Positions 1,964 through 57,081 of a stretch of 64,000 nt of DNA are shown piece by piece (the first letter of the stretch is position 1; every line of letters starts with the position of its first letter). The notes under the pieces were generated by a model, which saw nothing but the letters and a program-made list of their open reading frames with translations, was not told the origin of the DNA and searched no databases. The DNA is from Candidatus Poribacteria bacterium (GTDB lineage: Bacteria > Poribacteria > WGA-4E > JAJDTR01): positions 3,200,001 to 3,264,000 of the forward strand of contig CBDCTK010000002.1 of NCBI GenBank assembly GCA_965222225.1, given 5' to 3'. Both the position numbers and the translations under genes were made by a program.

Positions 1964-2085
1964 GGGGATTTCTATGCAAGCACTATCGGGATTTACTATG
2001 GGAGTTCTATCGCACTCCTTATTCGGTCGTTTGATCCTTCCTTAACTGTCAGTTGATCGCTCGATATTCATTCGTTTAGTGCTCA
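1964..2085 (-). mobile_element. Nested cluster (3 levels) of the 35-37 nt GA-hairpin micro-element
   Basis: The minus strand parses as ACTAA AC GA AT GAATA TC GA GC G[ATCAA CT GA CA GTTA AG GA AG G[ATCAA AC GA CC GAATA AG GA GT GCGATAG AACTCC]CATAG TAAATCC]CGATAG... Confidence 0.7.
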
Positions 2086-25665: not shown

Positions 25666-25736
25666 ACCTACCCTCCTGCTGGTAATACCATTTCTTACAG
25701 TGATAGGGTATCAATGATGTGAATTTCAGAAAAAAA

Positions 25737-25801
25737 GCTATCGCCTTCGCTATGGGATCTTCTATCGCGTTCGTTATTCACTCACTTGATCTCAGTTGAT
25801 C
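25737..25801 (-). mobile_element. Nested micro-element pair
   Basis: Minus strand G ATCAA CT GA G[ATCAA GT GA GT GAATA AC GA AC GCGATAG AAGATCC]C ATA GC GA AG GCGATAG. Confidence 0.75.
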
Positions 25802-26477: not shown

Positions 26478-26544
26478 AATCAGTCGACCAGATAGGAAGG
26501 GATCAACTGAACGAATAGTGAAGGCGATAGCAAATCATAGTCTC
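26478..26544 (+). mobile_element. Nested micro-element pair
   Basis: AATCAG TC GA CC AGATA GG AA GG G[ATCAA CT GA AC GAATA GT GA AG GCGATAG CAAATC]ATAG TCTC. Confidence 0.7.
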
Positions 26545-27203: not shown

Positions 27204-27362
27204 GGAATTATTGAAGCGAAACCAACGCGTATTCCTGGAAATACGTGGTACCGCCGACACTCGAAATCATGATGCCCCTAAACACGTTAATTGAATGGAA
27301 GTTTCTCATGTAAATGTTCAGCTACCAAATCTTTGCCCCCACCTTTCTTAGGAGACCACTGC

Positions 27363-27758: not shown

Positions 27759-27764
27759 AGAGCA

Positions 27765-28091: not shown

Positions 28092-28309
28092 AAGGAGGGG
28101 ATGCGTTATGCCTGTCTAGTGCGTTGTTTTCTTAGGGATATGCCCGACATGTAACAGCCTCGGCGAATCCACACGCCGGGGCTTCTTCGCAAATTGACAT
28201 TCTGCGGAAAAACCCCGTCTATTTGCGAAAAAATAGCCTGAGTTGCACCCTATGCCGCGATGAAAGCGGACTGAAAGTAACACGAACACCAGAAGGAGTG
28301 GTTTAATCA

Positions 28310-29161: not shown

Positions 29162-29594
29162 CGAGTCTAACAGCAATACCATAGACTACAATGTCAACAC
29201 AACGTACCACGCGGAAATGCCTAATTTAACCGCCGATGTGGACGTGGCGGCCGCGACGTGGTCCGAAGCCGAGCACACCGGACAAGAGATAGATTTTAAT
29301 CTCAATAACGCAGGTACCACAACTCAGCACGCCCACGTTCGAGATAATCGAAATGTGATCGCCTATGGCGGCACACTGCCAAGTGGATGGGCCGCCGGCG
29401 TCTATACCTGGATACAGAACGACGTCATCCTGGAAGCGGATATGATGTTCAATTACTATCTGGATTTCGAACTGCATCCGGATTGGCAGCAAGGCGATGT
29501 ATGCATCCGCAACGTGGCAACCCACGAATTCGGACACTTCGTCCACCTGCTCGATTTGGCCCGGGTTGCCATAGTTCACCCGGATAGGTCTTGA
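29034..29594 (+). pseudogene. Matrixin-like secreted Zn metalloprotease, C-terminally truncated
   Basis: GGAGG RBS, signal peptide, EADMMFN, VATHEFGH; fused to IS630 sequence just after HLLDL. Confidence 0.65.
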
Positions 29595-30297
29595 CTGCAA
29601 TTGGCCCCATTTCATCAATGCAAATTGTTCGCGTGTCCGGTGGAGGCGCGATGTACGCCGAAATTATGGCCCCCTTTTTTCCACGAACTGTTCGTCCTGT
29701 TTTTCCGCATTATGAAACCAACTCTGCTGACGTTTCCAATTCAGCCCTTCTTCAGTTATCCAGCTCCATATTGTTGAATCGGAGAGATGAATCCCTTCTC
29801 TTTCTTTGAAGCTAATTTGCAGACGTTCTAGCGTCCACAACTCAAATGGATAATCCAGACTCGACGGTCTTTGCATCGCTAAATCAATCAGTTTACTGCG
29901 AACCTCTATCGAATGCGTTTTCGGTGCGCCGCTCCGGGGTTTATCAGCAAGTCCTTCAATGCCTTCGTCGTTGAAGGGATTTTCTATCGCGCTCCTTATT
30001 CAGTCGCTTGATCGCTTAATCCATTGCGCTCCGGAAACCCCCGTTTGAATCCAGCTTGTAGGGCGGCTTTGGAACTCGTTAGTTGGTTGTCATCAATCAT
30101 ATTGACGATGAGTTGAGCTCTTTGGACGAGCTGGTGAGATTGGGTACGTGAGTTAGCTAGAGTCCTAAGTTGGTGTTCTTCTGTTTCACTAACCGTACGA
30201 ACATAATGAACTCGTTTTCCCATTATGAATTCTCCTTTCCATTTCGGTTGAATGGGCAGGAGAATTATATCATAATTACTTGCCGAGAGAACCACTA
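29548..30297 (-). mobile_element. IS630-family transposase remnant
   Basis: Reconstructed MGKRVHY...QRAQLI...[22 protein letters not shown]...WTLERL...EK(A6G slippery site at 29674-29680)GAII...ICIDEMGP; TA end at 30296-30297; remainder of the DDE domain missing. Confidence 0.85.
29977..30012 (-). mobile_element. Single 36-nt micro-element inserted in the IS630 ORF
   Basis: AAGCG[ATCAA GC GA CT GAATA AG GA GC GCGATAG AAAATCC]CTTCAAC; removal restores W-I-K-R-F-N-D-E-G. Confidence 0.85.
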
Positions 30298-30379
30298 AGT
30301 ATCCAGCCGAAAATTAGAAGGTCACGTGCCATGATGTTACTCCAACTTAAAAATGTCCGATAACAAACCGTATCGGACG

Positions 30380-31470
30380 TTATTGTTTTATAGCCCCCCA
30401 CGTTGTAGCGGCTTTGGCGTAGGGGTTGACGACGGGAATCGAGGCGCGGAAGATGCCCCCGATGCTGTGTGGGAGGTAGAATCCTTGTTCTTCGTCCAGG
30501 GCGTAGAAAGTACGGCTAGCGGTGGCGTAAAGCCGGTCTTGATGGGATATCAGCTGACCGACACCGAACTCCGGCAGGCCGGCGGGAAACCAGGTTTCGT
30601 AGCGGTCGTCAAACACCCAGATTCCCTTTTTCCGAAGCCCGGCGAAGATACGGCCGCGATGGACGGCGAGGGCCGAGATCCTCGGCTCGTGCGGCAGTCC
30701 GGCGCTAAGATCGTCCCACGCGAGTTCGCCTTCGTCCCAGCGCCCAAAGGCGTATGCGGCGCCGACGTATAAGCGATCGTCATGCGCCAGCCAATCGCCC
30801 GGCGCTCCGTAATCGGTGAGGGCACGGCGGTGGCCGCCCCAAATTGGCATCAGTTCCCATGTGTCGCCCAGGTGGGGGTACGGTATAGGTCGGGGAAACC
30901 GACAAAGGCGGAGGCCCAGAGGTAGCCGTCGAACTCGGTCATCGTATGGCTACGAAAAGCGATGTGAGTTGACACATGCGGGCCGACGTGCACCCACTCC
31001 TCGTACGGGTAGTGCCAGGTCTCGCCTCGATCGCGGGATATGTGTGTGCCGGAGTGGTAGCCCACGGCGACGACCATACGGGATTCCGTGACGAGTATTT
31101 GGTTAATATAGGGGTGGTAGATGGGGCCGTCTATGCGATCCTCCTTATCAAGCCTGGTCAGACCGGCGTTTTTTGGAGCCCATGTCTCGCCGCAGTCATC
31201 GGATCGAAACATCCCGAATTCGGTGCCGGTATAGGCGTACACGGCATCGTCGCCGATTCCAAGGCAGTACACGCGGTGCGTCATGCCGGTCGGGCGCCAG
31301 GTGTCGCCGTCATCGTCGGAGATGTAGAGTCCGGTCCGGTCGGCGGCGTAGAGGCGTTCGCCGTCGCTTTCAAGCAGCGCCGCATCAATGTTGGGCAGGA
31401 ACTCCCAGTCGGCGCGGGCGCAGGCGGTCATGAGCAGGGCGATGGCGAGAATTGGGTATAGTGTTTTCAT
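30380..31470 (-). pseudogene. Secreted BNR/Asp-box beta-propeller protein with one frameshift near 30874
   Basis: Signal peptide MKTLYPILAIALL; Asp-boxes SDDDGDTW, SDDCGETW, SRDRGETW; adding one base gives LGDTWELMPIW... ending VNPYAKAATTWGAIKQ. Confidence 0.7.
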
Positions 31471-31773
31471 TTTATCCTTTCGGCGCGGATATTCGCATCC
31501 GATTCGTTCGCTAACATAGTCATCGTTACTACGAAAATGAAAGCGGTTCGCATTAAACGTCGAGTCCACATCATCGGAACGTCTCCCTTGGAGCTGATGG
31601 TTATCGGATTGATTGCGTTATTGGAGTGTATGCAAGTTATGCGCCACTATCTATCACGCGCCAAGGCTGTCCTAGTCCATAAGTTACCCTGAATTGGCAC
31701 GATCCCACGAATTGCATCAAACTCGCCCCCCGATGTGTCATGGAAACTCAATGGCGTTTCGTGATTTCGTGTA

Positions 31774-31872
31774 TAACAAGTGAACGACAATGTTCATATT
31801 ATGTACAAGGGGGCGTTGGCAGTTCTCGCTACAGTGCCTGGGTGCTACAAATCTGGTAGAGCACCAGTGCTG
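31774..31872. repeat. ~100 bp dispersed repeat, copy 2
   Basis: Direct-orientation match to 25566..25665 with scattered substitutions. Confidence 0.8.
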
Positions 31873-31902
31873 GCTTAACTAGCGGTAGGTTCGGCTGAAA
31901 AT

Positions 31903-31961
31903 GGATCTCTATGGGATTTCTATCAGGATTTGCTATCGCATTCGCTGTTCGCTCATTTGAT
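31903..31961 (-). mobile_element. Micro-element followed by two orphan 3' ends
   Basis: Minus strand G[ATCAA AT GA GC GAACA GC GA AT GCGATAG CAAATCC]TGATAGAAATCC CATAGAGATCC. Confidence 0.7.
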
Positions 31962-31980
31962 CGCCACGGGCGCTCTTAAA

Positions 31981-32042
31981 GGCTGGTGTGATCTCTATCG
32001 CGCTCATTATTCATTTGCTTATGATCGCAGTGCGCACCCTAC
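31981..32042 (-). repeat. GTAG REP palindrome interrupted by a 37-nt micro-element (31989..32025)
   Basis: Removing 31989..32025 restores GTAG GGTGCGCA C TGCGCACC AGCC, the same family as 2093..2118. Confidence 0.8.
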
Positions 32043-32145
32043 GAATGTACAGATCCAAGCTAACTGCGTAAATCCTATAAGTGAAATTCTTAATTGAAAT
32101 GGCCATAACCACGAACCACCAGTCACTGACCACTGTCTTTTCGAG

Positions 32146-33417
32146 CTACAGTTGAGCGCGTTTTACACCGTGCGTGAGCCTTCCGGTGGTGCCGTAAAAC
32201 GGATCGTCCTTATCCAAGGGCAGCGTCACCGGCTGGCGCTCCTCGGCAGATTTGTATATCGCTCGCACTACCTCCACATGGTGGCGCGGCACATCGATCG
32301 GCACGAGCGGCTCCGTGTTATCAGCAATGCTTTCCAAGAAGAGTCGGCTCTGATAGGCTTCGGTCGCGGTTTCCGGGACACCCTCCACCTCCGACCTTAG
32401 GTTTTCCAACGCCTCTACCACAGCCGGATTGTCGCTCGATCCGAACGTGGTCTCTGCCCGCCAATAGTTGCTCCTCCCCAATCCCGTGTTATGCGGAGGA
32501 GAGTAATAGGCTTCACCAACCAACATAGAGGCGTCGTAACCCAATACTTCGATGCGCCCTTCCGGTGTCAGCGGCTGTTTGTGGTTTAGCAGAGACGCAT
32601 GGATGCTGCCGGTTGCGCCGTTGTCGAACTTGACGACTGCCTGACTTAGGCTCTCGTGTTCAATCTCGCGCAGCGTAGGTCCCGAATAAGCAAAGATTTC
32701 CACGATTCGCGAACCGAGTACCCACAAGAACGGATCGATAATGTATCGGCCGTGATGGAACGAGGCTCCGCCTCCCTCACCATCCCATGTGCCGTGCCAG
32801 CGCTTGTAGTATCGTTGTGGACGATACCAGTTCAGTTCTACGCGAGCGCTGCCGATTTTGCCGAGTTTCCCGCTTTCCGCAACTTTACGCGCCAGAACCA
32901 TCCCCCGCGGGTAGCGAGCGCCGCACTGGGAATGAAATTTGACTCCCGTTTTCCGAATGGCTGCTGTCATGGCATCAGCCTGCGCCACGCTGCACGCCAT
33001 AGGGCCCTGAGTGAAGACATGGCGCCCCGTTTCAGCCGCGGCAACCGTCGGTTCCTGCCGTATCGGGGGCGGCGTGAGCAGCACTATTGCCTGCACGTCA
33101 CTATCCTTGAGCAACTCTTCATGAGTGCGATACTTCCGAATCTTTGTCCTAGCGGCGGTTTCAGCCGCTTCCACCATTTGTTGCCGACGCTCGCGTTCCT
33201 CAGGGGTGCGCGCCTCCGAAAGCATCATTCGCGCACGATGGGCTTCCATGGCATACCCCTCGCTGAGCGTAGTTCGCTTCCTTTCAGCCAGTTCATCTAC
33301 GAAATCTGCGACCGCTACCACCTGCGCGATGTCTACCAGACTTGCATAGATGTCCGCGTACAGCCGCGAGATTCCTCCGCATCCGACAAACCCGACGCGA
33401 ATTCGTTCATCTGTCAT
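32146..33417 (-). CDS. Gfo/Idh/MocA family oxidoreductase
   Basis: RVGFVGCGGI Rossmann motif, GRHVFTQGPMA, WHGTWDGEGGG, AIYKSA. Confidence 0.88.
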   Translation of the reverse strand: MTDERIRVGFVGCGGISRLYADIYASLVDIAQVVAVADFVDELAERKRTTLSEGYAMEAHRARMMLSEARTPEERERRQQMVEAAETAARTKIRKYRTHEELLKDSDVQAIVLLTPPPIRQEPTVAAAETGRHVFTQGPMACSVAQADAMTAAIRKTGVKFHSQCGARYPRGMVLARKVAESGKLGKIGSARVELNWYRPQRYYKRWHGTWDGEGGGASFHHGRYIIDPFLWVLGSRIVEIFAYSGPTLREIEHESLSQAVVKFDNGATGSIHASLLNHKQPLTPEGRIEVLGYDASMLVGEAYYSPPHNTGLGRSNYWRAETTFGSSDNPAVVEALENLRSEVEGVPETATEAYQSRLFLESIADNTEPLVPIDVPRHHVEVVRAIYKSAEERQPVTLPLDKDDPFYGTTGRLTHGVKRAQL

Positions 33418-33514
33418 ATCGATTTCTCCTATTTTCCGGTAAAAGTAACGGGCAATGAATGGGATAAGATGGGATTTTCAAAATGTATAGCAACGCCGAT
33501 CGCATGCACACTAA

Positions 33515-33735
33515 AGTCCCAGCGGGGCGACACTTGGATAGCGACCAAATCAAAAATATCAGCTGTGTGGTTGTTGTAGCATTTTCTGTTGAATTCTGAG
33601 GAGTTCGGATTGCCTATCATTCATAATTTTTCCTTGTTTGAACGATGCATTGAGACACGATCCACCTGTCGCCCCTCCGGGGCTTGGGGATGAGAACATT
33701 CGCTGTTTCTATACACCTGTCGCGCCGCTGGCGCT
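33515..33735. repeat. Three copies of a second REP-like hairpin family
   Basis: cacctgtc-gcccc-tcc-ggggc-t (33663..33684), ctatacacctgtc-gcgcc-gct-ggcgc-t (33709..33735), and an inverted copy at 33515..33541. Confidence 0.65.
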
Positions 33736-33828
33736 GTACGGTGCGAAACCTATAAAGCCAACAACATCTGCATGGTTACTTTCATCCTGAGGAGATCGAA
33801 GGATTTTAGATGCGATTGCCCTGCTGCT

Positions 33829-35760
33829 CTACGGGAATAATGTATACATATTCTTGCTAAGGATCACGGCAATTAGGCTCCACAGACTGCCAGCGAGAAA
33901 TTGACCGAAGATTAAGCCGAGGAAGAAGGGCAATGCGCGGCGATAGGATTTGACCCCGCCGCCGGCAAACAACAGCTGCTTGAACAACCAACCGAGAAAG
34001 ATAGAAAACCACAACCAACCCATCGCCCAACCGTCACCCACTGCGTATCCCACGGGGTAAAAGGGCCACCACAGGAATCCTTTTTTGAGTATGGTCAGGA
34101 TAATCGTAAATACAAACCCGAAGGTCATGTGCTGAATTGAAGCGATGTCCGTCGTTTGGGGAAATGCAATCCAGTTTTGAAGACGCCCAAACTCGCCGAC
34201 ACCCCAGCGTTGAAACTGATACTTGTGGTAAATGGCGACATGCGCGCCGATTGACATGATCGCGCCAACGATTGACGCCACAATCATTGCCACAACCAGG
34301 CGATTCTCACTCAATTTGAAGGACGATCCAATTTTGAATCCTTCTAACTGATGGGGCATCGGATGAGAACGATAGCCGTACGCCAACCACGACAAAAGTG
34401 TGGTGTTCGTCAAATTCGCGGCGCCGAGAGGCCTCGTCCCCATGAACCATACCATCATCTGATCCGGATGCGCGCCGTGCAACTCGTGCGTTGGGGGCCC
34501 GAGTTCCGCTCGCATTCGCGTGATTGCGGTGCAGAGCACATAATAGATAACGAAGTAGCTAATCACCACCCAAGGTGACAGACCGGCAAGAAGCCAGAAG
34601 ACCACGACGAATGTTATTCCTAGAACCAGACCGACCACGGCAAACGGGTATAAGGGGTCGGCGTCCCTGTTGGTAAACATCCCGCGTAAACCGCGCATGA
34701 TATGCCGTCTGCTCGTCCAAACAGCCATAACTCCGATGCCAATCCAAGCGCCTGCCCGTTGTTGTGTCTGCATAGCTGAGGCGGTCGTCCAACCCGTCGC
34801 GTTGAAAAAGACATCTTGCGCCTGCCAAAACAGAAAGAAGAGCCATAACGACAACGACAAATCCAGGGGCATCAGATACCCGAATCCAATAGCGAAGGGG
34901 TAGACGTAAACTGGCAACACCCCCACTCCGCCCCAACCGATGGTGTTCCACGGTTTCTCGGTAAACTGAATAATATACTTCGCTTTCAGAGCAGGAACAA
35001 TGGGATAGAGAAAATTGAAGCCGGCAAGGATCTCTAGCGTAAAAGCAAGCCCAAAACTAATCCAGATAAATTTGTTGGAGAACAGTCTTGACGTGTTGCC
35101 GATGACTTCAACGGGCATCACCGTCAGCGGATAACTCAGTTTTTCATGCTCTATCCACTGCTTCCTGATGATTATGTTCATGCAGAGCATCACGAAAAGC
35201 AGCACTATTACGAGCGCGGTCCACGCTAGCACTGGCGTCAGCCACGCATTGAGATAATCGGCAGTCCAAAAACTCTCAAACGCGCTCTTGTCGCCCTCGA
35301 AATAACCTTGCAAGATACGTCGATTCTCGACGGCAAGCCATGTTGGAATGAATCGAAAAAAAAGATCTTCCCACTCATTCTCCGGAGTTGCGTACCAGAA
35401 GGGATTCGCCATCAACGGTACCAACTGCCGGATGATGTCGTGCCCGGCAAGCGCCGTCGCAACGGAAACCATGATGTAGGTCATCGCTAGTTCGGCTTCG
35501 CTCAGCGCCAGACCTTTGAAAAAGCGCTTTAACAGCAGATTGACGCCCGCCAAACTGAATAGCGTAAAAAGCACCGTGGGAAAGATGGAAAAGTCCGTTA
35601 GCTCATAGACAACTCGATTCTCTGCGGATATAATCCAGTAACAGTTGAGGATGATTAGGATAGATCCGAAAATAAGCGTCCGGACGATGAAGCGGCCCGT
35701 TGTGCTCGTATCCGCATGAGTTAAAGTGTCTTTTCCCTGTCTCATAGTATCTATTTGCAA
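33829..35760 (-). CDS. Polytopic membrane protein, DUF6785/DUF6784-like, paralogue of 23381..25294
   Basis: WIEHEKLSYPL, RMRAELG, PMPHQLEG, WWPFYPVGY, YRRALPFFLGLIFG; start may be ATG 35745. Confidence 0.75.
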   Translation of the reverse strand: MQIDTMRQGKDTLTHADTSTTGRFIVRTLIFGSILIILNCYWIISAENRVVYELTDFSIFPTVLFTLFSLAGVNLLLKRFFKGLALSEAELAMTYIMVSVATALAGHDIIRQLVPLMANPFWYATPENEWEDLFFRFIPTWLAVENRRILQGYFEGDKSAFESFWTADYLNAWLTPVLAWTALVIVLLFVMLCMNIIIRKQWIEHEKLSYPLTVMPVEVIGNTSRLFSNKFIWISFGLAFTLEILAGFNFLYPIVPALKAKYIIQFTEKPWNTIGWGGVGVLPVYVYPFAIGFGYLMPLDLSLSLWLFFLFWQAQDVFFNATGWTTASAMQTQQRAGAWIGIGVMAVWTSRRHIMRGLRGMFTNRDADPLYPFAVVGLVLGITFVVVFWLLAGLSPWVVISYFVIYYVLCTAITRMRAELGPPTHELHGAHPDQMMVWFMGTRPLGAANLTNTTLLSWLAYGYRSHPMPHQLEGFKIGSSFKLSENRLVVAMIVASIVGAIMSIGAHVAIYHKYQFQRWGVGEFGRLQNWIAFPQTTDIASIQHMTFGFVFTIILTILKKGFLWWPFYPVGYAVGDGWAMGWLWFSIFLGWLFKQLLFAGGGVKSYRRALPFFLGLIFGQFLAGSLWSLIAVILSKNMYTLFP

Positions 35761-35876
35761 GCGTTGAGGGCAGTGTCAGTGATTTCGATCCGAGGTGTTT
35801 ATGGCAGGCAGATGAGGGGAGTTGCAAGCACAAGCAGCTTGTAAACACTCCACTGACCACTAATCACTCTGCAGTA

Positions 35877-37460
35877 TTACTGATCATTACCCATTCTCTC
35901 GGACCAATCACGCCATGCACTTGCCATCTGATCCATGATCTCTGGATGCTTCCGCCCCAAGTCCTTCGATTCTGTGCGGTCTGTTTCGAGGTCGTAGAGC
36001 TCCCAATTTCTCATGTCCCCGAGATTGCCGCGTCCAATGCTTTTCCAGTTTCCGTGCCGTACCGCTCTGTTGCCGCGGTGCTCCCAGAACAGCCAGTCAT
36101 GCCCTTCTCGATGATTGCCTTGGAGAATGGGTATGAGGCACTTTCCCGCACAGGGAGTGAGTTCTCGTCCGTTGTACTCCCTAGAATACTCAATGCCAGC
36201 TGCCTCGCAGAGCGTGGGTAGGATGTCCATTGCGTGTCCAAATTCGTGGGTAATGGCTCCCCCGCCACTGGTGACACCGGGCCAACGAACGACAAGCGGT
36301 GAGGCGATACCGCCTTCGTACAAACTGCCCTTGAAACCGCGCAACGGGGTGTTGTGCAGAGAACCCCACCCGGGTCCAGGCGAGCAGTAGGTGCCAATTC
36401 CGCCGGGGATAATATCCGGTCTATCGCGTTCCTCATTCTCGTACCCATCGCCGCCGTTATCCGACAAAAAGAGGACAATGGTATTCCGGTCCGCGCCGCA
36501 ATCCCCGAGAGCCTGTAGAATGCGTCCAATCCCCTGATCCATGCAGTCAATCATGCCCGCGTAGATCGTCATGCGTAAATCCTGCCACTCCTTATGTTCC
36601 TCGTTAGCCCATGAAGGAAGATTCGGAACACGATCCGGCAACCGAATTTCCGGGTTCAACAATCCCATGCTGAGTTGCCGTTCGTAGCGATTCCTTCGCA
36701 GTTCCTCCCATCCCGCCATGAATTTTCCGCGATACTTTTCGACATCTTCCCGTTTTGCTTGGAGCGGGCTATGCGGCGTCAAATGGGCAACGTAGGCGAA
36801 AAACGGATCTCCCTGTTTGCTGAAACGCTTGATTGTTTCAACCGCATGATCGTTAATCGCATCGGTGAGATAATAATCCTCGGGAAACTCTGACACAACT
36901 TCCTCATTGTGCATAACCGGAGGTCGAAAGCCTACGAATTTAAGATCGCGCAACGCCGGATTGAAATAGTTCGATGGAATATCGGCAAAGCCGTAATACT
37001 CGTCAAAACCCCAGTCTAACGGACTGCCCTGCACCGGCACATTCCATTTTCCGCTGATGGCGGTACGATAACCCGCCGAACGCAGGAGTTGCGCGACAGT
37101 GACTAGATTCGGAGATAATCGAGTGTTTCGCTCATCCACGTAACAATATAACCCGGTCATTAGCGAGGCGCGAGAGGGAACGCAGACCGGATTAACGCAG
37201 AACTGGCTGAAACGCAAACCTTCGGCAGCCAGCCGATCCAGGTGCGGCGTTTCGATTTCGCCCCCGTAACAGCCCGCATCCGACCAGCCCATGTCGTCCG
37301 CCATAATCAGAACGATGTTCGGCTTATCCGTCTCTGCCGCAGCCCCGTTCTTTCCTCCATTGGAAGCGGCATTAACGGCAAATGGTGCGAACGCCGATGC
37401 CGTAGCTGCACCCCCGGCCAGCCTTAGCAATTCTCGTCGAGTCAGTTTATTCCCCGCCAT
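35877..37460 (-). CDS. Tat-exported arylsulfatase
   Basis: TRRELL twin-arginine signal, PNIVLIMADDMG, CVPSRASLMTG (CxPxR), SDNG, ELYDL. Confidence 0.92.
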   Translation of the reverse strand: MAGNKLTRRELLRLAGGAATASAFAPFAVNAASNGGKNGAAAETDKPNIVLIMADDMGWSDAGCYGGEIETPHLDRLAAEGLRFSQFCVNPVCVPSRASLMTGLYCYVDERNTRLSPNLVTVAQLLRSAGYRTAISGKWNVPVQGSPLDWGFDEYYGFADIPSNYFNPALRDLKFVGFRPPVMHNEEVVSEFPEDYYLTDAINDHAVETIKRFSKQGDPFFAYVAHLTPHSPLQAKREDVEKYRGKFMAGWEELRRNRYERQLSMGLLNPEIRLPDRVPNLPSWANEEHKEWQDLRMTIYAGMIDCMDQGIGRILQALGDCGADRNTIVLFLSDNGGDGYENEERDRPDIIPGGIGTYCSPGPGWGSLHNTPLRGFKGSLYEGGIASPLVVRWPGVTSGGGAITHEFGHAMDILPTLCEAAGIEYSREYNGRELTPCAGKCLIPILQGNHREGHDWLFWEHRGNRAVRHGNWKSIGRGNLGDMRNWELYDLETDRTESKDLGRKHPEIMDQMASAWRDWSERMGNDQ

Positions 37461-37550
37461 TCTATTCTCGCCCATTTCCTCACATTGAGATCCTGTTTGA
37501 AAACTAGATGGAAAAGTCATTTAGGGCATTTGGAGTGATAGTACCTGCGA

Positions 37551-37698
37551 GAGTTCTATCGATCAACCGAGTGAATAGCGAGGGCGATAGCAAATCCTGC
37601 TCATTTGATCTATTCGCTCGGTTGAGGGATCTCTATCGGAATTTGCTATCGCGTTCCCTATTCGGTCACTTGATCCCTCCTTATTCAGTCGGTTGATC
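37551..37698. mobile_element. Composite of at least five micro-element copies in both orientations
   Basis: Plus-strand unit 37562..37597; minus-strand nest G ATCAA CC GA CT GAATA AG GA GG G[ATCAA GT GA CC GAATA GG GA AC GCGATAG CAAATTC]CGATAG AGATCC; additional half units. Confidence 0.8.
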
Positions 37699-39559
37699 CC
37701 ACGGTATCGACAAAGCTTGTATACCCGGGCCCACCGGCGCCCACATAGCCATGACTCGCGCCGGATTCGTCCGGGCTTACCCAAAACGAATAGAGCTCCC
37801 CCAGCCTCAGATGAAAGCGAAATTTAACGGGTTCACCCGCCACGCTTGATAGGTCGGCTCCGCCTTTCCACTCCACCCGATGCGATGTTCTGTTGGCCGT
37901 GAGAGGCACACAGTTATCCACTGTGAACGGCTCAACGACGTTGCCATCCTCATCAAGTACCTCCACCCGCAGTTCACCTTGATCGCAGTCCGTGTTCGCA
38001 AACAAGTACTTACCGGAAAACTTGAGCGGCCTTGTCGTCAGTGTACCGGTGTTCCGGACCGAGCCCATAGAGGCGAACCCGTCGCGCCTCAAGAACGCAA
38101 GCCCCGTATTCACGAACCCGTCCCATAGCTTTCCCTTTTCCGGGAGGTTGCGCCCCGTGAAATACAGGTACAATTTATCTCCGACAACCAGACACGCACC
38201 GCTTGCCGACTGTACATTTCCCCAGTTCCATGCGCCGGGGCTTTCCGTTGCCTCAAAAAAAGGCCGGCGATCCGGGCGGTCGTAATGGAACCCGTCCCTG
38301 CTGTAACCGAGCAGCACCTCGTTCCGCTTCGGTATGTGTTTTACGTGGCACACGTCGTTATCCGGCCCCTGCCAAATCGAAAAGTACCCAAGCATTAAAC
38401 TCTCATAGGCGACCGTGTCGAAATGATACAACTGCGGCAATATTTCTGCACTATCCGGGTTCGGGTTGCGAGGATCGAGCCGGTCCGCACCCAGCCACGG
38501 AACCACCTCACCACCAGGTCTAACCTCTGCCAATTTCACGGCTTCGACAGGGGTATCCCCCTCAACGTACGCACGCGCCCGACCGGTCTCTCGTCCACTG
38601 CGTATGTTAATAATCCACTTGTCCCGGAAGGGGTTGTAGTGCGCGTTCGTGTGGTCCCCGACCACCCCTGCTGAGCTGGCTATCGGCTCAGACCAGTGTA
38701 TGCCATCGGCTGAAGTCCTGTAGGCAACAGCGGAGTCTTCACCGAGGCGCTCAGGTAAGCCTATATGCCACGTTGTGTAGAAAATCTTGTATCGGGCTAA
38801 CCGGTCGCTGGTGTCGTAGTCAATCCAAACGCTTGTGGTATCAATCGGTCGTATGTGCTTCTTTTCTGGCCACTGCGGCGGTATCGGCGGCAACTCCACC
38901 CCGTGGTCAATCACGATGTTCGTTCCCGGCAGCACGTCCTGCTCGGTCTTCTCCCAGTGAACCCCATCCTTGGACGTTGCGTAACAACTGTACTTGATGT
39001 AACCGCCGACGTACCACATCTTGAATAGCTCGTCCTTCGGGTCGTACCAGACGCCGCCGCTGAAGGGACCGGCAAAGGGCGCGGGCCCATGATGTTCCCA
39101 CTCCCTGTCCGGCTTGATGATCGGGTTTCCCTCGTAGTAGGTTGGCTGGTGGAACGTGCGTTGCAGCGTGGTCTCCTCAATCAAGAAATCGTCCACGAAT
39201 AGTTGTCTTCCAACGTCAATGTTGATAACCTCGGGCGGATTTTCGAGATACGGGACAGGCATCGGATCCCGCGTCCATCCGCCGTAATCCGGCGGCCATT
39301 TCTCAGGCAGAACGATACCGTTGTAAAGTTCCTCGCCTGTGTCGTTCTGCTTGTCCTTCATTCTTACCTCCGATTGTCCTTCTCGCCCGGAATCTTGGTC
39401 GGTTTCCGTGACCGCAGCGAGCACTATGTGAGGACCAGATTTGCTGGAAATGTATTCTGTCGACGAACCTGATGGGGCGTTCCCGATCGCCATGGTATTC
39501 ACGAGCCAAACGCCCACAAAAGCTACCCCAAGGATTCCGTAGATTTTAATCGTTCCCAT
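37685..39559 (-). CDS. Secreted GH32/GH43-like five-bladed beta-propeller protein
   Basis: GRQLFVDDFLI, YATSKDGVHWEK, YSRDGFHYDRP, LRRDGFASM, LYSFWV; start taken at MGTIKIY. Confidence 0.75.
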   Translation of the reverse strand: MGTIKIYGILGVAFVGVWLVNTMAIGNAPSGSSTEYISSKSGPHIVLAAVTETDQDSGREGQSEVRMKDKQNDTGEELYNGIVLPEKWPPDYGGWTRDPMPVPYLENPPEVINIDVGRQLFVDDFLIEETTLQRTFHQPTYYEGNPIIKPDREWEHHGPAPFAGPFSGGVWYDPKDELFKMWYVGGYIKYSCYATSKDGVHWEKTEQDVLPGTNIVIDHGVELPPIPPQWPEKKHIRPIDTTSVWIDYDTSDRLARYKIFYTTWHIGLPERLGEDSAVAYRTSADGIHWSEPIASSAGVVGDHTNAHYNPFRDKWIINIRSGRETGRARAYVEGDTPVEAVKLAEVRPGGEVVPWLGADRLDPRNPNPDSAEILPQLYHFDTVAYESLMLGYFSIWQGPDNDVCHVKHIPKRNEVLLGYSRDGFHYDRPDRRPFFEATESPGAWNWGNVQSASGACLVVGDKLYLYFTGRNLPEKGKLWDGFVNTGLAFLRRDGFASMGSVRNTGTLTTRPLKFSGKYLFANTDCDQGELRVEVLDEDGNVVEPFTVDNCVPLTANRTSHRVEWKGGADLSSVAGEPVKFRFHLRLGELYSFWVSPDESGASHGYVGAGGPGYTSFVDTVGSTD

Positions 39560-39593
39560 ATAGCAATCTTCTTTTCTGTTTGCTTCACTTATT

Positions 39594-41103
39594 TCAGTTG
39601 CAACTAAACGAATACAATTTCGCGTTCTGCAACTCAAACCTTAATCGAACGTCCGTGCCTCTCGCGGCAGTCGGATCCCATCCTGCCCTCCACGTTACTT
39701 TGCCATCGGTGACGCTATTGTGGATGAGTTCGCCCTCGACGATTGGCGCTCCCTGCTCTCCAACAACCGCAGCACGGACAGACCCGCCTTCCTGCACATC
39801 TGCTGTAATCCGGAGCGACGCGAAATAACTCGTTACCAGTCTGGTCGTAATGACGGCGGGTATACCCGACGATATCTGTTCGTAACCGGCAAAACCGTCG
39901 GGACGCAACGTCGCCAAACAGAAAGAGCCGACCCGCCAACCGGAATGCGGGCCGTCGCTGGCACCGTAGTACAGACGAATCTCTTCATCCAAAAAGACGG
40001 GATTTGCAGCGGCGTACACGCACCCCCAATCGTAATCGGCTCGCTCGCTGCCTTGTGGAATTAGTGGCGAACCGGGGCATACCCGATGCCACCGAATCGT
40101 ATCCGGGCTCCAAGCCAACTCCGTATGCGTTCGATCGGTTTCCGTATTGTAGATCGCCGGTAATCCGAGATAAATCCCCTGATACCGAAACACCGGCATA
40201 CATATAGATTTGCAGATGGGGCATCTCTCCTTCAAACGCCTGCTCGACCTGCTTCCACTTGAGGAAATCCTTGCTGGCGACCCGTCCTACGGCGCGCACT
40301 CCCTGTTCCTGTCCGTTCACCGTAACCTTGGTTTCGCTGCTTATTCGGGTAAAACCGACATACTCGCCAAGTTCTGGAGACCAAAGAGCGTTGTTGGCGC
40401 TGTCCCATGCAATACCCGCTTCGGGGCATGGAATCTGTTGACTCCAGCGCACGCCATCGGCGGAGAACGCCACCGCCAACATTTGGTGCCCTGTGGTGTG
40501 GCCAATCATGAACGCCTTGTAGCGCCGAGCGGGATCCGGATCGTGCAAATCTTTGAACACGCTCGCACCATGGGGTCCGCGTACGGCAATATTATTTTCG
40601 CTGTTCCCGAGAAATTCAACAACTCCCAGCCTCGGCTTTTCCCAACGCAGACCGTCCTCGGAAACGGCATAGCAGATACCCTCATCCCTGTCCTCCGGGG
40701 ATCTGTAGAGAGTTTCTTCCCGCTCTTCAAGCGTCATGCCCTTTGCGGAGTTGTCGATGATGAACGGCATGTACCAGCACTTGTACAACTGTTCCTCTTC
40801 GTCATAAATGACCCTTGCGTAGAGGTTGTCATAGCGTTTCTCCCACGGCTCGTCTTCACCAAAAAGAGGATTGGAGGCGTGTTTCTCCACCACCCCGAGA
40901 GTCAATTGTGCATTTTGAGTGTTCGCAACAACACGCGAATCAAGCAGAAGGTATCTTTCTTTTTTCACGTCTTCATCCTTCTTTCCGTGGGCGCTGTTCG
41001 TCGAGAGACTATAGATTGCCATGGTGAGAATGACTGTCGCTGCCACCACCGTTTTACCATCGAACCTTGTGCGCCGTGCCTTCATGATAACATCCCACAA
41101 CAA
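39594..41103 (-). pseudogene. GH32-like beta-propeller protein with a +1 frameshift near 40203
   Basis: ORFs 39985..41103 and 39594..40235 together match intact 44363..45880 (QIYCMPVFRY); one extra base here. Confidence 0.8.
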
Positions 41104-41623
41104 TATCCACTAGACTTGTGCTTTTAACAGGTTACTCCAAACAGATGCCAATGACGGTGCCGCCGGCAACAAGTTGATGCGTCTCGGTAACAGGCAGGTC
41201 GCGAATTACGGCGTTTCCAGACGGTAGGGCTTGAGGAAGAGCGGTAAATCAATCCGGTGCAAGTCCGGCAAAAATCGGATTCTTCACGCACATCCCTAAA
41301 CTATAGTTTAACCTTACTTAAATAATACGTCAACACAAAGAATCACTTGCGAAAAGTGTTATCATCAACGAGACTCCCTACTTGCAGGGGCATAGCCACG
41401 ACCGCTTTTTCTCGACACAATTCGTTGAGCGTGTTACAATGAAAGCTATTCGGTGGAGATTGTTTTCACACGCTATAAACCGGAGTTTTTTCTTGAGACT
41501 CGGTTGCTGTCGCTTTATTAGCGACAGGGCAGTTCCATGTGTTGCAATCCTTATAAATTGAAACTCGGATGTTCCGTAAAAAACATCCCTATCAAAAAAC
41601 TCTATCGCGAAGGAGCGTTGTCA

Positions 41624-43285
41624 ATGAAATTCTCAAAAATACTCACTGTTTGCTTGATGCTTGGATTTGGGCAACTCACTGCGACTTTCGCGGAGTCCAA
41701 GCTAGTATCTGGCGATCCGAACATGGATGATCGGTTTGCGAACATGGATGATCGGTTTGGCTGGTCGGTAGACATCAGCGGGCATACGATAATCGTTGGC
41801 GCCCCTAATAACCACGAGAACGACGTTATTGAGCATGGATCAGCGTATATCTTTGCACTCAAAAGAGAGGGAAACAAGGACAACTGGGAACAGCAGGCAG
41901 TGCTCGATCCCCAGGAGGACGGACGCCTGAACGATAACTTTGGTTACTCTGTGGGAATCGATGGCGACTATGCCGCAGCCGGATCCCCCGGAATTAATAG
42001 TTCCACCGGTGCCGTGTATACCTACAAGCGCACCGGAGGTGTTTGGAAGCAACAGCAGAAACTCATTCCCGCCGACGCAAAAAAGAGAGACAATTTCGGA
42101 TATTCCGTTGATATGCTAGGAGAGCATCTTATCATTGGCGCTTACCTTGACGATAGCAAAGCAGGATCTGTCTATATTTTCAATCGCAACGGGGATAGAT
42201 GGCGGCAGCAGGCAAAGCTGACCGGCAACGACACTGCCAAAGGCGACAATTTCGGCGTCGCGGTTGCCCTCGGTGGCAACGAGAACGGCGTCGACTTCGC
42301 CATTGTTGGTTCGCCCAACAACACGCACAACGGGAAAAAGTCGGGCGCCGCATATATCTTCGTTCATGACGGAGGAAAATGGACGGAAGAGGCTAAACTA
42401 GTGCCCGCAGACGCTCAAACCTCCGACTTCATCGGAGATGCCGTATCTATTAGTGGGTACCGCGGCATCAAGCGTTACGCCCTCGTCGGAGCGCCGCATT
42501 TGGACTTGGCGCAGGACGTGGAGGGAAGGAACAGCGCCGCCTACATCTTCTCAAGCGATGGAGGCGCGTGGACCGAGGAAGCCAAGCTTAAGGCTAAGGA
42601 TCCGGAGAAGGCAGACGGCTTTGGATCAGGCGTGTCAATCAACCGTAATATCGCGCTAGTCGGCGTGCCGCGTCACGGGGAAGGCGCTATTCTGGACGGT
42701 GAACTCAATGCGGGAATTGTCTATCCTTATCTTCGGGAAGGCGACGGCTGGACTAGGCAACAAGCGCGGGCAACCACGGTAGCTCCGGACTTTCCGGAAC
42801 AGAGTTTCGGAAATGTAGTAATAGCCACGCAGGAGTTTATTGTCATTGCTGCGTACGGCTTGGGAAAGGGGAACCCCGGTCGCGGCGATCCAATGGGAGG
42901 TGCGGTGTATGTCTATCACACCCAAAGGGATTGGAAGCTGCCCTACGCCGTTGAACCGTCTGTACTAAGGGCGGCAACGCTGGGCGGAATAAAGCGAACG
43001 GCGCTATTCCAGAATTTTCCGAATCCATTTAATCCGGAGACCTGGCTGCCGTATCAATTGGGGCGCAAGTCAAATGTGACTCTCCGCATCTATAACACGC
43101 GAGGGCATCTTGTGCGCCGATTGGATGTAGGGCTTCAGCCGGCGGGCAGTTATCAGAACAAAGAAACCGCTGTCTATTGGGACGGTCGAGATCGATTGGG
43201 ACAGCCCGTCTCCAGCGGCCTCTATTTCTACACACTAACCGCAGGCACATCTCAAATCACGCGCAGAATGCTAATTTTGAAATAG
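41624..43285 (+). CDS. Secreted FG-GAP repeat protein with C-terminal FlgD-Ig/CTD-like domain
   Basis: Repeated FG.SV.I.G..IVGA...GAVY; LFQNFPNPFNPETW...WDGRD..GQPVSSGLYFY; AAGGAG before ATG 41624. Confidence 0.85.
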   Translation: MKFSKILTVCLMLGFGQLTATFAESKLVSGDPNMDDRFANMDDRFGWSVDISGHTIIVGAPNNHENDVIEHGSAYIFALKREGNKDNWEQQAVLDPQEDGRLNDNFGYSVGIDGDYAAAGSPGINSSTGAVYTYKRTGGVWKQQQKLIPADAKKRDNFGYSVDMLGEHLIIGAYLDDSKAGSVYIFNRNGDRWRQQAKLTGNDTAKGDNFGVAVALGGNENGVDFAIVGSPNNTHNGKKSGAAYIFVHDGGKWTEEAKLVPADAQTSDFIGDAVSISGYRGIKRYALVGAPHLDLAQDVEGRNSAAYIFSSDGGAWTEEAKLKAKDPEKADGFGSGVSINRNIALVGVPRHGEGAILDGELNAGIVYPYLREGDGWTRQQARATTVAPDFPEQSFGNVVIATQEFIVIAAYGLGKGNPGRGDPMGGAVYVYHTQRDWKLPYAVEPSVLRAATLGGIKRTALFQNFPNPFNPETWLPYQLGRKSNVTLRIYNTRGHLVRRLDVGLQPAGSYQNKETAVYWDGRDRLGQPVSSGLYFYTLTAGTSQITRRMLILK

Positions 43286-43313
43286 ACTTCCAAGAGATTC
43301 GAAGATGGTTATC

Positions 43314-43343
43314 GGCAGGGCACGCGGGTGTCCTGCCTTTTTT
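43314..43343 (+). terminator. Rho-independent terminator
   Basis: GGCAGGGCAC-loop-GTGTCCTGCC followed by T6. Confidence 0.75.
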
Positions 43344-43466
43344 GTAATCACTAAACGGGAGCACTTCATGATTTAGACCAATTTTATCAAGCATTTGGCG
43401 GTATGCCTGCCCCAATGGTGGGAATCGTTCCTAAATTATGGAATTGCTAACATTGCCTATTTTGGC

Positions 43467-43495
43467 TTGACAATCTATAGAGCCAACAGTATCAT
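43467..43495 (+). promoter_or_regulatory. Sigma70 promoter of the accD fragment
   Basis: TTGACA-17 nt-TATCAT; equivalent to 48472..48500. Confidence 0.55.
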
Positions 43496-43560
43496 AACTT
43501 TTTCCTACGAACAAGAATCGAATATGTAGTAAAACCCGGACGCGAGGATGGTGGCGATTC

Positions 43561-43791
43561 ATGGAATTGATTTCCTGTCGGAAATGCGACGCACAACTTG
43601 CCAAACAGGAGTTCATTAAGAGGCACCATAGAGTCTGCCCGGAATGCGATCATCATGACTATTTGAGCGCATTTGAACGTCTTGAACTATTGGTTGATGA
43701 CGGCAGTTTTGAATCGCACGACGACGGGCTTTATTCGCTCGATCCACTAGAATTTCCGGATTACGTGGAGAAACTGGAAAGAGACGCCGCC
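43561..43791 (+). pseudogene. accD: 5' fragment of accD (reads on into antisense sequence to 43935)
   Basis: MELISCRKC...CPECDHH...EKLERDAA matches the N-terminus of the intact accD, then switches at AGACGCCGCC. Confidence 0.85.
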
Positions 43792-44301
43792 GCTGAACGG
43801 ACCGGCGAAAGGCGCGGGACCATGATGCTCCCACTCCCTGTCCGGCTTGATGATCGGGTTTCCCTCGTAGTAGGTTGGCTGGTGGAACGTGCGTTGCAGC
43901 GTGGTCTCCTCAATCAAGAAATCGTCCACGAATAGCTGTCTTCCAACGTCAATGTTGATAATCTCGGGCGGATTCTCAAGATACGGCACAGGCATTGGCT
44001 CCCGTGTCCACCCGCCGTAATCCGGCGGCCACTGCTCAGGTAGAAGGATACCGTTGTAAAGCGTCTCGCCCTTCTGTGTTTCGTCTTTCTCCTCCTGTCT
44101 GATGCGCATGCTTACCTCCGCTTGCCTTTCCTGCCCAGAATCTGGGTCGGTTTCCGTGCCGACTGCGAGCATCACATGAGGGTTCGAATCGGTGGAGAAG
44201 TCTAGTGTCAACGAATCTGTTGGACCACCCCCAAGTGCTATGTTACTCACAAGCCATATTCCAACACAGACCAGCATCAAGATGTCGTTAACTCTAATCA
44301 T
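43782..44301 (-). pseudogene. 5' fragment of a paralogue of 37685..39559
   Basis: LYNGILLPEQWPPDYGGWTR...PFAGPFSGGV, truncated at the duplication junction. Confidence 0.85.
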
Positions 44302-44362
44302 TCCCGTCTAGTCCTTATGAGCCAAGCTGTTAGCAATTTCTCCTCTTTTTGCTTCGCTTATT

Positions 44363-45880
44363 TCAATTGCAACTGAACGAATAAAGTTTCGCGTTCCGCA
44401 GTTCAAACTTCAATCGTATTTCCTTCCCGTTAGCGCCGTTAGCGCCGATAGGATCCCATCCAGCCTTCCATGTTATCACGCCGTTGGTGATGGTACTCCA
44501 GACGGGTTCACTGTCTACAAGTGTCGCACCCTGTTCATCAACAACCGCGGCGCGGACGAACCCGCCAGTCTTCACGTCTGCCGTGATCCGCAGCGACCCG
44601 AAATAGCCTGTTATCGGTTTGGTCGTAATGCTGGCAGGCTTATCCGCCGATATCGGCTCGTAACCGGCGAAACCGTCGGGCCGCAGTGTCGCCAAACAGA
44701 AAGAGCCGACTCGCCAACCGGAATGTGGACCATCGCTAGCGCCGTAGTACAGACGCACCTCCTCATCCAAAAAGACAGGATTCGCGGCAGGGTACACGCA
44801 CCCCCAATCGAAATCATCTCGCTCGCTGCCTTGTGGAATCAGCGGCGAACCGGGGCATACCCGATGCCACTGAATCGTGTCCGGGCTCCAAGCCAACTCC
44901 GTATGAGTTCGATCGGTTTCCGTGTTGTAGATTGCCGGTAATCCGAGATAAATCCCCTGATACCGAAACACCGGCATGCAATAGATTTGCAGATGGGGCA
45001 TCTCTCCTTCAAACGCCTGCTCGACCTGCGTCCACTTGAGGAAATCCTTGCTAGCGACTCGTCCTACCGCGCGCACTCCCTGCTCCTGTCCATTAACCGT
45101 AACCTTGGTTTCGCTGCTCATGCGGGTAAAACCGACGTCTTCCCCACGTTCGGGAACCCACAAAGCGTTGTTGGCGCTATCCCAAGCAATACCCGCTTCC
45201 GGGCAGGGAATCTCTCGGCCCCAGCGTACCCCATCGGCGGAGAACGCAACCGCCAACATCTGGTGCCCTGTGGTATGCCCAATCATGAACGCCTTATAGC
45301 GCCGCGCGGAATCCGAATCCCGTAAATCTTTGAACACGCTTGCCCCATGCGGTCCCCGCACGGCAATGTTATTTTCGCTGTTCCCGAGAAACTCCACAAA
45401 CCCCAGTTTCGGTTTCTCCCAGTGGAAACCGTCTTTAGAAAAAGCGTAGCAAATCCCCTCGTCCCTATCTTCCGGCGATTTGTAGGGAGTTTCTTCCCGC
45501 TCTTCGAGCGTCATGCCTCTGGCGGAGTTGTCAATGATAAACGGCATGTACCAGCACTTGTATAACTGTTCCTCTTCGTCATAAATGACCCTTGCGTAGA
45601 GGTTGTCATAGCGTTTCTCCCACGGCTCGTCTTCACCAAAAAGAGGATTGGAGGCGTGTTTTTCTACCACCCCGAGAGTCAATTGTGCATTTTGAGTGTT
45701 CGCAACAACACGCGAATCAAGCAGAAGGTATCTTTCTTTTTTCACGTCTTCATCCTTCTTTCCGTGGGCGCCGTCCGTCGAGAGACTATAAATTGCCATG
45801 GCGAGCACAACTGTCACTGCCGCCGCCATCTTACCATCGAACCTTGTACGCCGTGCCTTCATGATAACATCCCACAACAA
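44363..45880 (-). CDS. Secreted GH32-like beta-propeller protein (intact copy)
   Basis: 505 aa; YAFSKDGFHWEKP, SADGVRW, LAWSPDTIQW, LRPDGFAG, NAKLYSF; start may be ATG 45862. Confidence 0.78.
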   Translation of the reverse strand: MLWDVIMKARRTRFDGKMAAAVTVVLAMAIYSLSTDGAHGKKDEDVKKERYLLLDSRVVANTQNAQLTLGVVEKHASNPLFGEDEPWEKRYDNLYARVIYDEEEQLYKCWYMPFIIDNSARGMTLEEREETPYKSPEDRDEGICYAFSKDGFHWEKPKLGFVEFLGNSENNIAVRGPHGASVFKDLRDSDSARRYKAFMIGHTTGHQMLAVAFSADGVRWGREIPCPEAGIAWDSANNALWVPERGEDVGFTRMSSETKVTVNGQEQGVRAVGRVASKDFLKWTQVEQAFEGEMPHLQIYCMPVFRYQGIYLGLPAIYNTETDRTHTELAWSPDTIQWHRVCPGSPLIPQGSERDDFDWGCVYPAANPVFLDEEVRLYYGASDGPHSGWRVGSFCLATLRPDGFAGYEPISADKPASITTKPITGYFGSLRITADVKTGGFVRAAVVDEQGATLVDSEPVWSTITNGVITWKAGWDPIGANGANGKEIRLKFELRNAKLYSFSCN

Positions 45881-49330: not shown

Positions 49331-49348
49331 TTTCAACTACGCGTTACG

Positions 49349-49413
49349 ATCAAACGAGTGAATAGCGAGTGCGATAGAAGATCCCATAGTAAATCCCGTG
49401 CGATAGCAATCCC
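49349..49413 (+). mobile_element. Micro-element plus two orphan 3' ends
   Basis: G[ATCAA AC GA GT GAATA GC GA GT GCGATAG AAGATCC]CATAGTAAATCC CGTGCGATAGCAATCC. Confidence 0.75.
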
Positions 49414-56859: not shown

Positions 56860-57015
56860 AACATAGTCTCCTTGGTCGTTTTCGTTACCATTGGTACGTA
56901 CGAAAAATGCTCTTCATATCTTTAATTTTGGTAGCTTCCCACACGGCGGATTATATCACGATCAATCGATGGCGTCAATTGCTGAATACAGAGCAATCGC
57001 ATCTGATTGTAGGCG

Positions 57016-57081
57016 ATTCAATGAGCGAATAGATCAATCAAACGAATAGCGCGCGCGATAGTAATCCTGCGATAGAGATCC
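57016..57081 (+). mobile_element. Nested, degenerate micro-element pair
   Basis: ATTCA AT GA GC GAATA G[ATCAA TC AA AC GAATA GC GC GC GCGATAG TAATCC]T GCGATAG AGATCC. Confidence 0.6.

Follow-up and report, generated by a model that had tools for sequence, protein, structure and literature searches.

A 36-nt hairpin repeat of Candidatus Poribacteria nested in its own copies after G: a probable family of very small mobile DNA

The spacer studied here, at 37,550-37,698 of the window (the whole 64-kb stretch of DNA analysed), lies between two minus-strand open reading frames (ORFs; 35877-37520 and 37685-39637) and is filled almost wholly by copies of a 36-nt repeat unit. The repeat families of the window, together with a genome-wide scan, gave the consensus GATCAA-NN-GA-NN-GAATA-NN-GA-NN-GCGATAG plus a tail of 6-7 nt, in which a fixed head, (G)ATCAA, is followed by a miniature hairpin, a fixed GCGATAG box and the pyrimidine-ended tail, for example AGATCC or NNNATCC. 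The hairpin has two variable 2-bp stems, formed by positions 7-8 with 22-23 and by 11-12 with 18-19, on either side of an invariant GA/GA internal loop; the hairpin loop is GAATA or GGATA.

On the minus strand, an outer (host) unit begins at 37675..37698 with its positions 1-24, comprising GATCAA, the whole hairpin (CC/GG, CT/AG) and G24, as read from the sequence and returned by automatic parsing. The parser placed an inner 36-nt copy (ATCAA...ATTC, stems GT/AC and CC/GG, 1 mismatch) directly after outer G24 at 37639..37674 of the same strand, and recovered positions 25-36 of the outer unit, CGATAG plus the AGATCC tail, at 37627..37638 (minus). The initial annotation, which had described a 36-nt minus-strand copy lodged between the G and C of another copy's GCGATAG, was therefore accurate, with 37674..37639 lying inside 37698..37675 plus 37638..37627. 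Its statement that excision restores a perfect covarying unit holds in that a unit is restored, but the restored unit carries 2 mismatches, both from a short tail, and although its hairpin does pair, the whole hairpin lies 5' of the G24^C25 cut (positions 7-23 are all on one side), so that covariation at 37627..37698 cannot test nesting. The outermost unit (37675-37698) sits beside a conserved GTCGATACCGT, and its stem, CC/GG here, is GC/GC or GC/GT in three congeners, which reflects either an in-place compensatory double change or independent hot-spot insertions.

The remainder of the spacer holds a partial unit on the minus strand, identified by eye at 37610..37626 (TCAA..GAATAG, positions 3-18), which is joined head-to-tail to the preceding tail without a GA of its own and has no right part. 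Next to it, also on the minus strand and read by eye, the left part of an internally deleted unit (37598..37609, ATCAA-AT-GA-GC-A) ends at an intact copy in the opposite orientation (37561..37597, plus strand, 0 mismatches), and the right part of the interrupted unit, GATAG with an AACTCT tail, was read at 37550..37560 (minus). This opposite-orientation copy had been reported to interrupt a further copy at the same GC, and indeed its flanks (GA-NN-A and CGATAG, around 37561/2-37597) fit 21 genome-wide events with the same type of junction; the host at this site is without ~11 nt of its hairpin. Just downstream of the spacer, the window also contains a tandem duplication of ~4.75 kb (39049-48800), the copies of which are 76-93 % identical with start-to-start distances of 4733-4778 nt and one block of 5002 nt.

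A scan of the assembly (5.70 Mb in two contigs) revealed 955 copies of the unit with at most 4 mismatches in the 25 fixed positions, of which 55 are perfect and 11 lie in the window, including solitary intact copies with 0 mismatches at 29978..30013 (minus) and 49348..49383 (plus). Crude ORF calls contain 65 of 952 copies, the remainder being intergenic; the genome holds 69 stem combinations, and the copies lie scattered, 611 of 810 groups consisting of one copy. Exact matches, sought in one genome per species, fell only in Candidatus Poribacteria records among the 80 listed of 116 loci. We then scanned 81 sampled Poribacteria genomes, allowing up to 2 mismatches and using the pattern written backwards as a control. 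There were 939 matches in the source genome, 661-1345 per genome in four congeners, 221-238 in each of the 4/4 genomes of a second genus from a different family (g4), and 1-3 in each of three further genomes, while all 53 of the 53 sampled genomes of family f2 had zero; in total, 69 of the 81 genomes were free of matches. The backwards pattern gave 0 matches in every one of the 81 genomes and, set against the 939 forward matches in the source genome, this excludes a chance origin of the unit. No Rfam family reached its gathering score across the 64-kb window, and the matches at 37300-37900 were at chance level only (E above 1); the HIP1 octamer was not enriched in the genome (120 found compared with ~174 expected). 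The searchable literature on repetitive, palindromic and intergenic repeats of Poribacteria yielded no description of the 36-nt unit, and that pairing REP sequences with nested insertion yielded no paper.

Each of the four stem pairs is a standard one in 89-98 % of the genome copies (n = 955, at most 4 mismatches). To a sample of 80 copies from other Poribacteria assemblies, chosen on the fixed positions alone, the same pairing applies: 96.1 % of cells pair compared with 62.1 ± 2.0 when shuffled (0/500 shuffles reach the observed value), both sides vary in 4/4 pairs, and partners slid out of register pair in 22-57 %. Among the 3820 stem cells of the genome copies there are 404 G.T and 60 A.C combinations. 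An A.C pair on one strand is a G.T pair on the complementary strand, and the frequent G.T and rare A.C thus indicate that the strand as written is the one selected to fold. Thermodynamic support was sought and rejected, in that single-strand DNA folds of six units under standard parameters (-0.2 to -2.2 kcal/mol, z -0.6 to +1.5) were no better than those of shuffled sequences. The argument for folding is the covariation, which suggests that the hairpin is recognised by a protein.

Several of the other nests that had been cited in the window were recovered. At 25732..25801 on the minus strand, an inner copy (25754-25791) lies in a host cut after G11 (G^C of the inner stem), with 2-3 nt lost on the 3' side; the automatic parse placed the same cut, and this agrees with the earlier reading of 25737-25801 as splitting the inner GC/GC stem. 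The plus-strand nest at 57015..57081, cited as 57016-57081, has its inner copy at 57032-57066 in a host that the parse cut after G18, with 3-4 nt lost. The cited nests were mostly right, including the losses of 1-4 nt reported for their 3' junctions. At 1964..2085 (minus), two degenerate left parts, an intact copy (2001-2036) and three stacked tails (CATAG.., CGATAG.., CATAG..) form a layout consistent with the three levels proposed there, but the automatic parse gave one level. The nest at 26478..26544 (plus), in which an intact copy (26501-26536) follows a degenerate left part and precedes an ATAG tail remnant, is plausible, but its host is degenerate and has lost "CG". The one described at 25459-25508 is incomplete: a left part (positions 1-18) and an intact copy are followed by the right half of a REP hairpin, and there is no host right part.

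The initial annotation had proposed a genome-wide parse by recursive excision, and this procedure, with 0-3 missing host bases allowed, returned 210 nesting events in 715 clusters, which divide into 532 of one level, 163 of two, 17 of three and 3 of four; in the four-level examples the heads are stacked in one order and the tails in reverse (last-in, first-out). Informative events are those cut inside the hairpin, and merging of near-identical composites left 142 event clusters. Of 164 base pairs split by an insert, 138 are standard once it is removed, compared with 107.5 ± 4.3 when right parts were exchanged within the cut class (maximum 124 in 2000 permutations). The inner and outer stems were also found to differ, as had been claimed: both 5' stem dinucleotides are shared in 1 of the 142 event clusters, with ~5 expected at random. 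Since inner and host stems are almost never shared, slippage duplication is rejected for the bulk of the clusters, and opposite-orientation inserts exist that local slippage or tandem duplication of one unit would not produce. This makes it extremely improbable that such a process builds the clusters, even though it accounts for the exception that had been singled out at 2121-2178, where three 19-nt truncated heads with the same stems form a tandem duplication. That array of truncated heads directly abuts a GTAG REP.

The proposal that repeated self-targeting builds these clusters and records the order of insertion is borne out by the 210 genome-wide events as far as building is concerned, but the record is not a clean one. 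Among the 268 intact copies preceded by a recognisable left part, the right part matches in 161 (60 %) and is absent in 107; in the latter, what comes after the junction of left part and inner copy is half of a REP or a tail beginning at a later host position. The ~40 % of such junctions that are unmatched mean that the clusters cannot be read as a clean record of insertion order, and the missing right parts could require secondary deletions between short direct repeats or one-event chimeric products. We also considered whether mismatch counts identify inner copies as younger. Across all events, inner copies had 2.04 mismatches and outer copies 2.56 (p 2e-6), but the gap vanished in events with intact junctions (2.49 vs 2.47, n=55), and the criterion was rejected, the difference being probably due to junction damage. 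Comparison of head and tail motif counts was likewise rejected as a test of pure nesting because the two motifs differ in stringency.

The choice of insertion site was investigated by counting junctions at which a host unit runs up to a given position and is followed directly by ATCAA-NN-GA-NN-G, a right part not being required. Junctions were found after G24 (102), G20 (60), G13 (56), G18 (38), G11 (22) and G19 (17), more rarely after G8 (8), G26 (5), G9 (4), G22 (3) and G23 (1), and not after G7 or G30 (0 each), while there were 0 at each non-G host position and control patterns gave 0-1 matches. The 36-nt block is therefore always preceded by G. The annotated rule that the element inserts into its own GC dinucleotides captures the commonest site, since G24^C25 takes 107 of the 210 parsed events in both orientations (followed by G20^A with 32 and G13^A with 25), but the target is the position after G and is wider than GC. 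All 21 of the 21 opposite-orientation events are at the complement of C25, and G24^C25 is the sole site used in both orientations because GC reads alike on both strands. The 5' junction is exact and there is no target duplication, with 0-3 target bases missing at the 3' junction; first-level G24 events retain the host C in 34 instances, whereas 46 show its loss or alteration, often by replacement of C with T or of CGATAG with CATAG. The local sequences of G9 and G20 are similar, yet G9 is hardly used, and a GA-NN-G or pyrimidine-G context was rejected as the site rule since neither explains why G9 is avoided and G20 used. In addition, some heads are joined straight to a preceding tail without GA, in 38 cases after CC.

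Self-insertion is real, but the self-targeting described initially is part of a broader pattern, as the same G^C rule is used in GTAG-type REP hairpins, and outside its own copies the 36-nt unit mainly targets GTAG-headed REPs. Three REP target types are represented by 147, 28 and 93 empty sites and by 22, 22 and 18 sites filled with exactly 36 nt; the filled sites read ATCAA...GCGATAG plus a 7-nt tail, with 2, 3 and 1 target bases missing, respectively. Within one target type the inner sequences differ and the junction is identical, which could equally mean that one ancestral insertion spread with the REP and that gene conversion between units followed. Anchor matches for the three target sites numbered 201, 69 and 133. 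Classical GTAG-headed REP families occur genome-wide (GTAGGGTGCGCACTGCGCACC, GTAGGCGGGGCATCTTGCCCCGCC, GTAGGAGCGATCTCC and others), an example in the window being GTAGGGTGGGCACTGCCCACC at 2060-2090 of the minus strand. There are also recurring units (4-13 copies) in which GCGATAG is followed by CTATATGTAGGG or TCTTGTAG, the GTAG REP directly replacing the tail.

Larger paralogous repeats of the genome contain the same host unit both empty and filled, with flanks that are 90-96 % identical (u230, u285, u391 and u550). Such filled and empty partners were found for 49 units, and 45 alignments, from pairs that are partly non-independent, were read by eye. Of these, 10 were ambiguous; in all of the other 35 the empty site has a G immediately left of the gap, 30 of them being G^C, 4 being G^A and 1 being G^T. 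The G24 nesting junction occurs 74-353 times per genome in nine congeners and 53-65 times in each of four g4 genomes, compared with at most 6 per genome elsewhere in the sample. The orthologous spacer holds one un-nested unit in congener G003, a host resembling the present one but carrying another inner copy, placed after G22, in G004, and a host with yet another inner copy at position 24 and extra tails in G009, and no unit was found there in G006 and G008. The state of the spacer thus differs between species, whether or not a hot spot was hit independently. The G003 spacer also carries a tandem array with a period of ~70 nt (CGATTCA.GAC...TGCTACTAC.AACCT...), unrelated to the 36-nt unit.

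These observations bear on whether the nests might instead have formed by recombination, gene conversion or template jumping between registers, or be composites amplified in larger repeats. The filled and empty host pairs with 90-96 % identical flanks argue against it, as does the finding that a host of the same type holds different inner copies in different species; moreover, 142 distinct event clusters remain after merging, their left and right parts match far better than permuted ones, and the three- and four-level dolls are strictly last-in, first-out in their tails. Such processes would fit the 40 % of left-part/inner junctions without a right part, the G13-cut class, which is dominated by one composite that is itself amplified and has similar flanks, the heads set on a preceding tail without GA (the 38 cases after CC), and the identical junctions in a REP target type despite different inner sequences, but we consider them a decidedly improbable source of the nests as a whole.

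The orientation of the clusters is related to local strand asymmetry. Regions of positive coding GC skew hold 120 clusters in plus and 188 in minus orientation, compared with 205 plus and 87 minus in regions of negative skew (Fisher p 1.5e-14). Orientation shows no link with transcription, with 312 copies running with co-directional flanking genes and 272 against them.

Taken together, these data point to a Candidatus Poribacteria family of mobile DNA repeats, very small and non-autonomous, that nests in itself after G, which we regard as the probable explanation. The 36-nt block integrates strand-specifically, directly 3' of a G in G/C-rich, hairpin-forming DNA, and since the unit itself carries several usable Gs, new copies land in old ones and nests up to four deep result. 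The active form would be single-stranded, with the strand written as the consensus being the one that folds, as the balance of G.T over A.C implies, and insertion may be coupled to replication because the orientation of the copies follows local GC skew. The shared 5' G or GA, the fixed length of the block, the ragged far end and the orientation bias favour a replication-linked single-strand reaction. The leading candidate for its chemistry, which we hold to be possible although short of likely, is a copy-in reaction. A discrete 36-nt single strand would serve either as the template on which a target 3' end in G or GA is elongated or as an intermediate to which that end is joined, followed by imprecise resolution at the far side, with the enzyme acting in trans. 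A less likely possibility is that the unit represents a new kind of minimal mobile DNA, a 36-nt single-stranded module that is copied by a host or trans-acting polymerase or nuclease into a nascent or nicked 3'-G end. Such a module would have one protein-recognised GA/GA hairpin, a preference for one replication strand and no dedicated transposase of a known family, and if this were so, self-nesting and REP targeting would be by-products of where 3'-G ends arise.

An RNA route would start from a small, folded RNA copy of the unit that undergoes target-primed reverse transcription at a nick, the ragged junction and the shared G/GA then being microhomologies used in priming or joining. We consider this improbable. 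The G.U-tolerant covariation on one strand, the shared 5' G/GA, the variable last 1-2 bases and the small losses of target at the 3' side are all compatible with it, but the orientation of the copies is unrelated to neighbouring genes (312 vs 272) and follows the asymmetry of the DNA strands, and there are no Rfam family matches. A candidate enzyme for this route would be a 670-aa reverse transcriptase (RT)-like ORF (L160, C2:4499563-4501572), present in 5 of the 9 unit-bearing sampled genomes (with in-frame stops in two) and in 1 of the 72 others. However, its RVT_1 match of 26.8 bits is below the Pfam cut-off of 29.6, its distribution across unit-bearing genomes is incomplete and confounded by phylogeny, which makes it a weak lead as the driver; it may be a defence-type RT.

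The main rival to a copy-in reaction is single-strand peel-and-paste by a Y1 (HUH) transposase, either a RAYT or an IS200-like TnpA, for which the unit would be a REP-like substrate. It would fit, in outline, the variable hairpin of conserved shape, the strand specificity, insertion 3' of a fixed base without duplication, and the orientation bias, and the genome has 5 Y1_Tnp matches, 3 of which have units within ~200 nt, two of them in an inverted flanking arrangement. Nonetheless, these nearby units occupy GTAG-REP hairpins, which are their usual targets, and a deletion junction. The distribution of the IS200-like protein (L117) disagrees with that of the units across the 81 sampled genomes: it was found in 53, including 35 of the 53 unit-free f2 genomes, and was not found in 2 of the 4 g4 genomes that carry ~230 units. 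At the same locus in G001 and G005 the orthologues of the RAYT remnant are intact, and the 3.2 kb around them is free of units; with protein and unit distributions in disagreement and synteny in these genomes lacking units, RAYT was left unsupported as the driver. Furthermore, the unit has one hairpin instead of two subterminal ones, no GTAG/CGTC head and no REPIN doublets. The IS608 reaction is precise, which is unlike the loss of 0-3 nt at the 3' junction of the unit. The strand/skew polarity of the unit also appears opposite to that of IS608-type elements, in that its folding strand lies on the C-rich side of the skew, a polarity assigned by the usual skew rule in a metagenome-assembled genome with an irregular cumulative skew. 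On balance, a Y1 reaction therefore seems doubtful.

None of the enzymes sought by protein distribution, synteny and Y1/RAYT or RT-like matches was tied to the unit family. Two degraded RAYT genes were noted in the course of this search. One (L121, C2:3560268-3560543) has lost the N-terminal half, 36-nt units marking the breakpoint of the deletion, and is intact in G001 and G005; the other (L119, C2:3088937-3089269) is interrupted by a TAG in frame and lies between GTAGGAGCGATCTCC-type REPs in inverted arrangement.

Of the defining features examined for REP/REPIN-RAYT systems, derivatives of IS200/IS605, MITEs and CRISPR arrays, the unit lacks at least one in each case. Like the REP, BIME and REPIN-RAYT systems, it is a short extragenic hairpin repeat with hundreds of copies that probably acts single-stranded, and it conforms to the description of a REP as an imperfect palindrome of 20-40 nt, extragenic and in high copy number. 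REPs are characterised, as in PMC3733652, by a hairpin whose base carries a conserved tetranucleotide, GTAG or CGTC. The position profile of the unit instead has GATCAA 5' and GCGATAG 3' of the hairpin, and no cognate, flanking and co-distributed RAYT was found for it; there are no inverted REPIN doublets, since among inverted copies just one spacing is enriched (25 nt, in 23 cases) and this is the opposite-orientation nest at G24^C25. The unit thus inserts into REPs and is not one. Features common to the unit and IS200/IS605 elements are strand-specific placement 3' of a short fixed target that is not duplicated, recognition of a hairpin by its shape and a replication-tied orientation, but the unit is 36 nt long with a single-base target, its strand polarity is apparently opposite, and in place of hairpins at both ends and precise junctions it has one hairpin and an imprecise 3' junction with 0-3 nt lost. 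Bacterial MITEs such as Correia, ERIC and Nezha are tabulated in PMC3184786, and resemble the unit as non-autonomous intergenic repeats with filled and empty sites. MITEs measure 100-400 bp and have terminal inverted repeats and target duplications, neither of which is seen in the unit profile or in the filled/empty alignments. Unlike CRISPR arrays, the copies are dispersed and nested and are not regularly spaced.

The closest likeness may be to the SDR4-6 repeats of Nostoc punctiforme, which Elhai et al. in 2008 reportedly described as 21-27 nt long, intergenic, lineage-specific and nested in one another, and which they are said to have argued to be mobile by a mechanism then unexplained. The 36-nt unit is likewise far below 100 nt, intergenic, lineage-specific and nested; it differs in phylum and sequence, in its length and in its covarying hairpin with a GA/GA loop, and, going by what is reported of SDR4-6 and not by comparison of the sequences, in its G target, exact 5' junction and ragged 3' junction. 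Small dispersed repeats (SDRs) are also named in a passage of PMC3116915.

Repeats of this size tend to be written off as relics or as immobile. In this family, each insertion can be read for the G that was hit, its orientation and the loss at the far junction, over hundreds of events in ~thirteen related genomes, which makes the spread of sub-100-nt repeats without coding capacity testable, and a candidate enzyme would have to account for the site spectrum and the strand bias as well as the covariation of the stems. By interrupting REP hairpins and occupying the point at which a deletion truncated a RAYT gene, the unit shapes the intergenic architecture of an uncultivated sponge symbiont. In practical terms, the units break short-read assemblies at every cluster. 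We examined four public short-read runs (Logan contigs) over 25000-38500 of the window; the joints between these contigs link different repeat copies and are hence silent on single inserts, and the contigs themselves break off in the repeat clusters, as at 37589/37590 and 37682.
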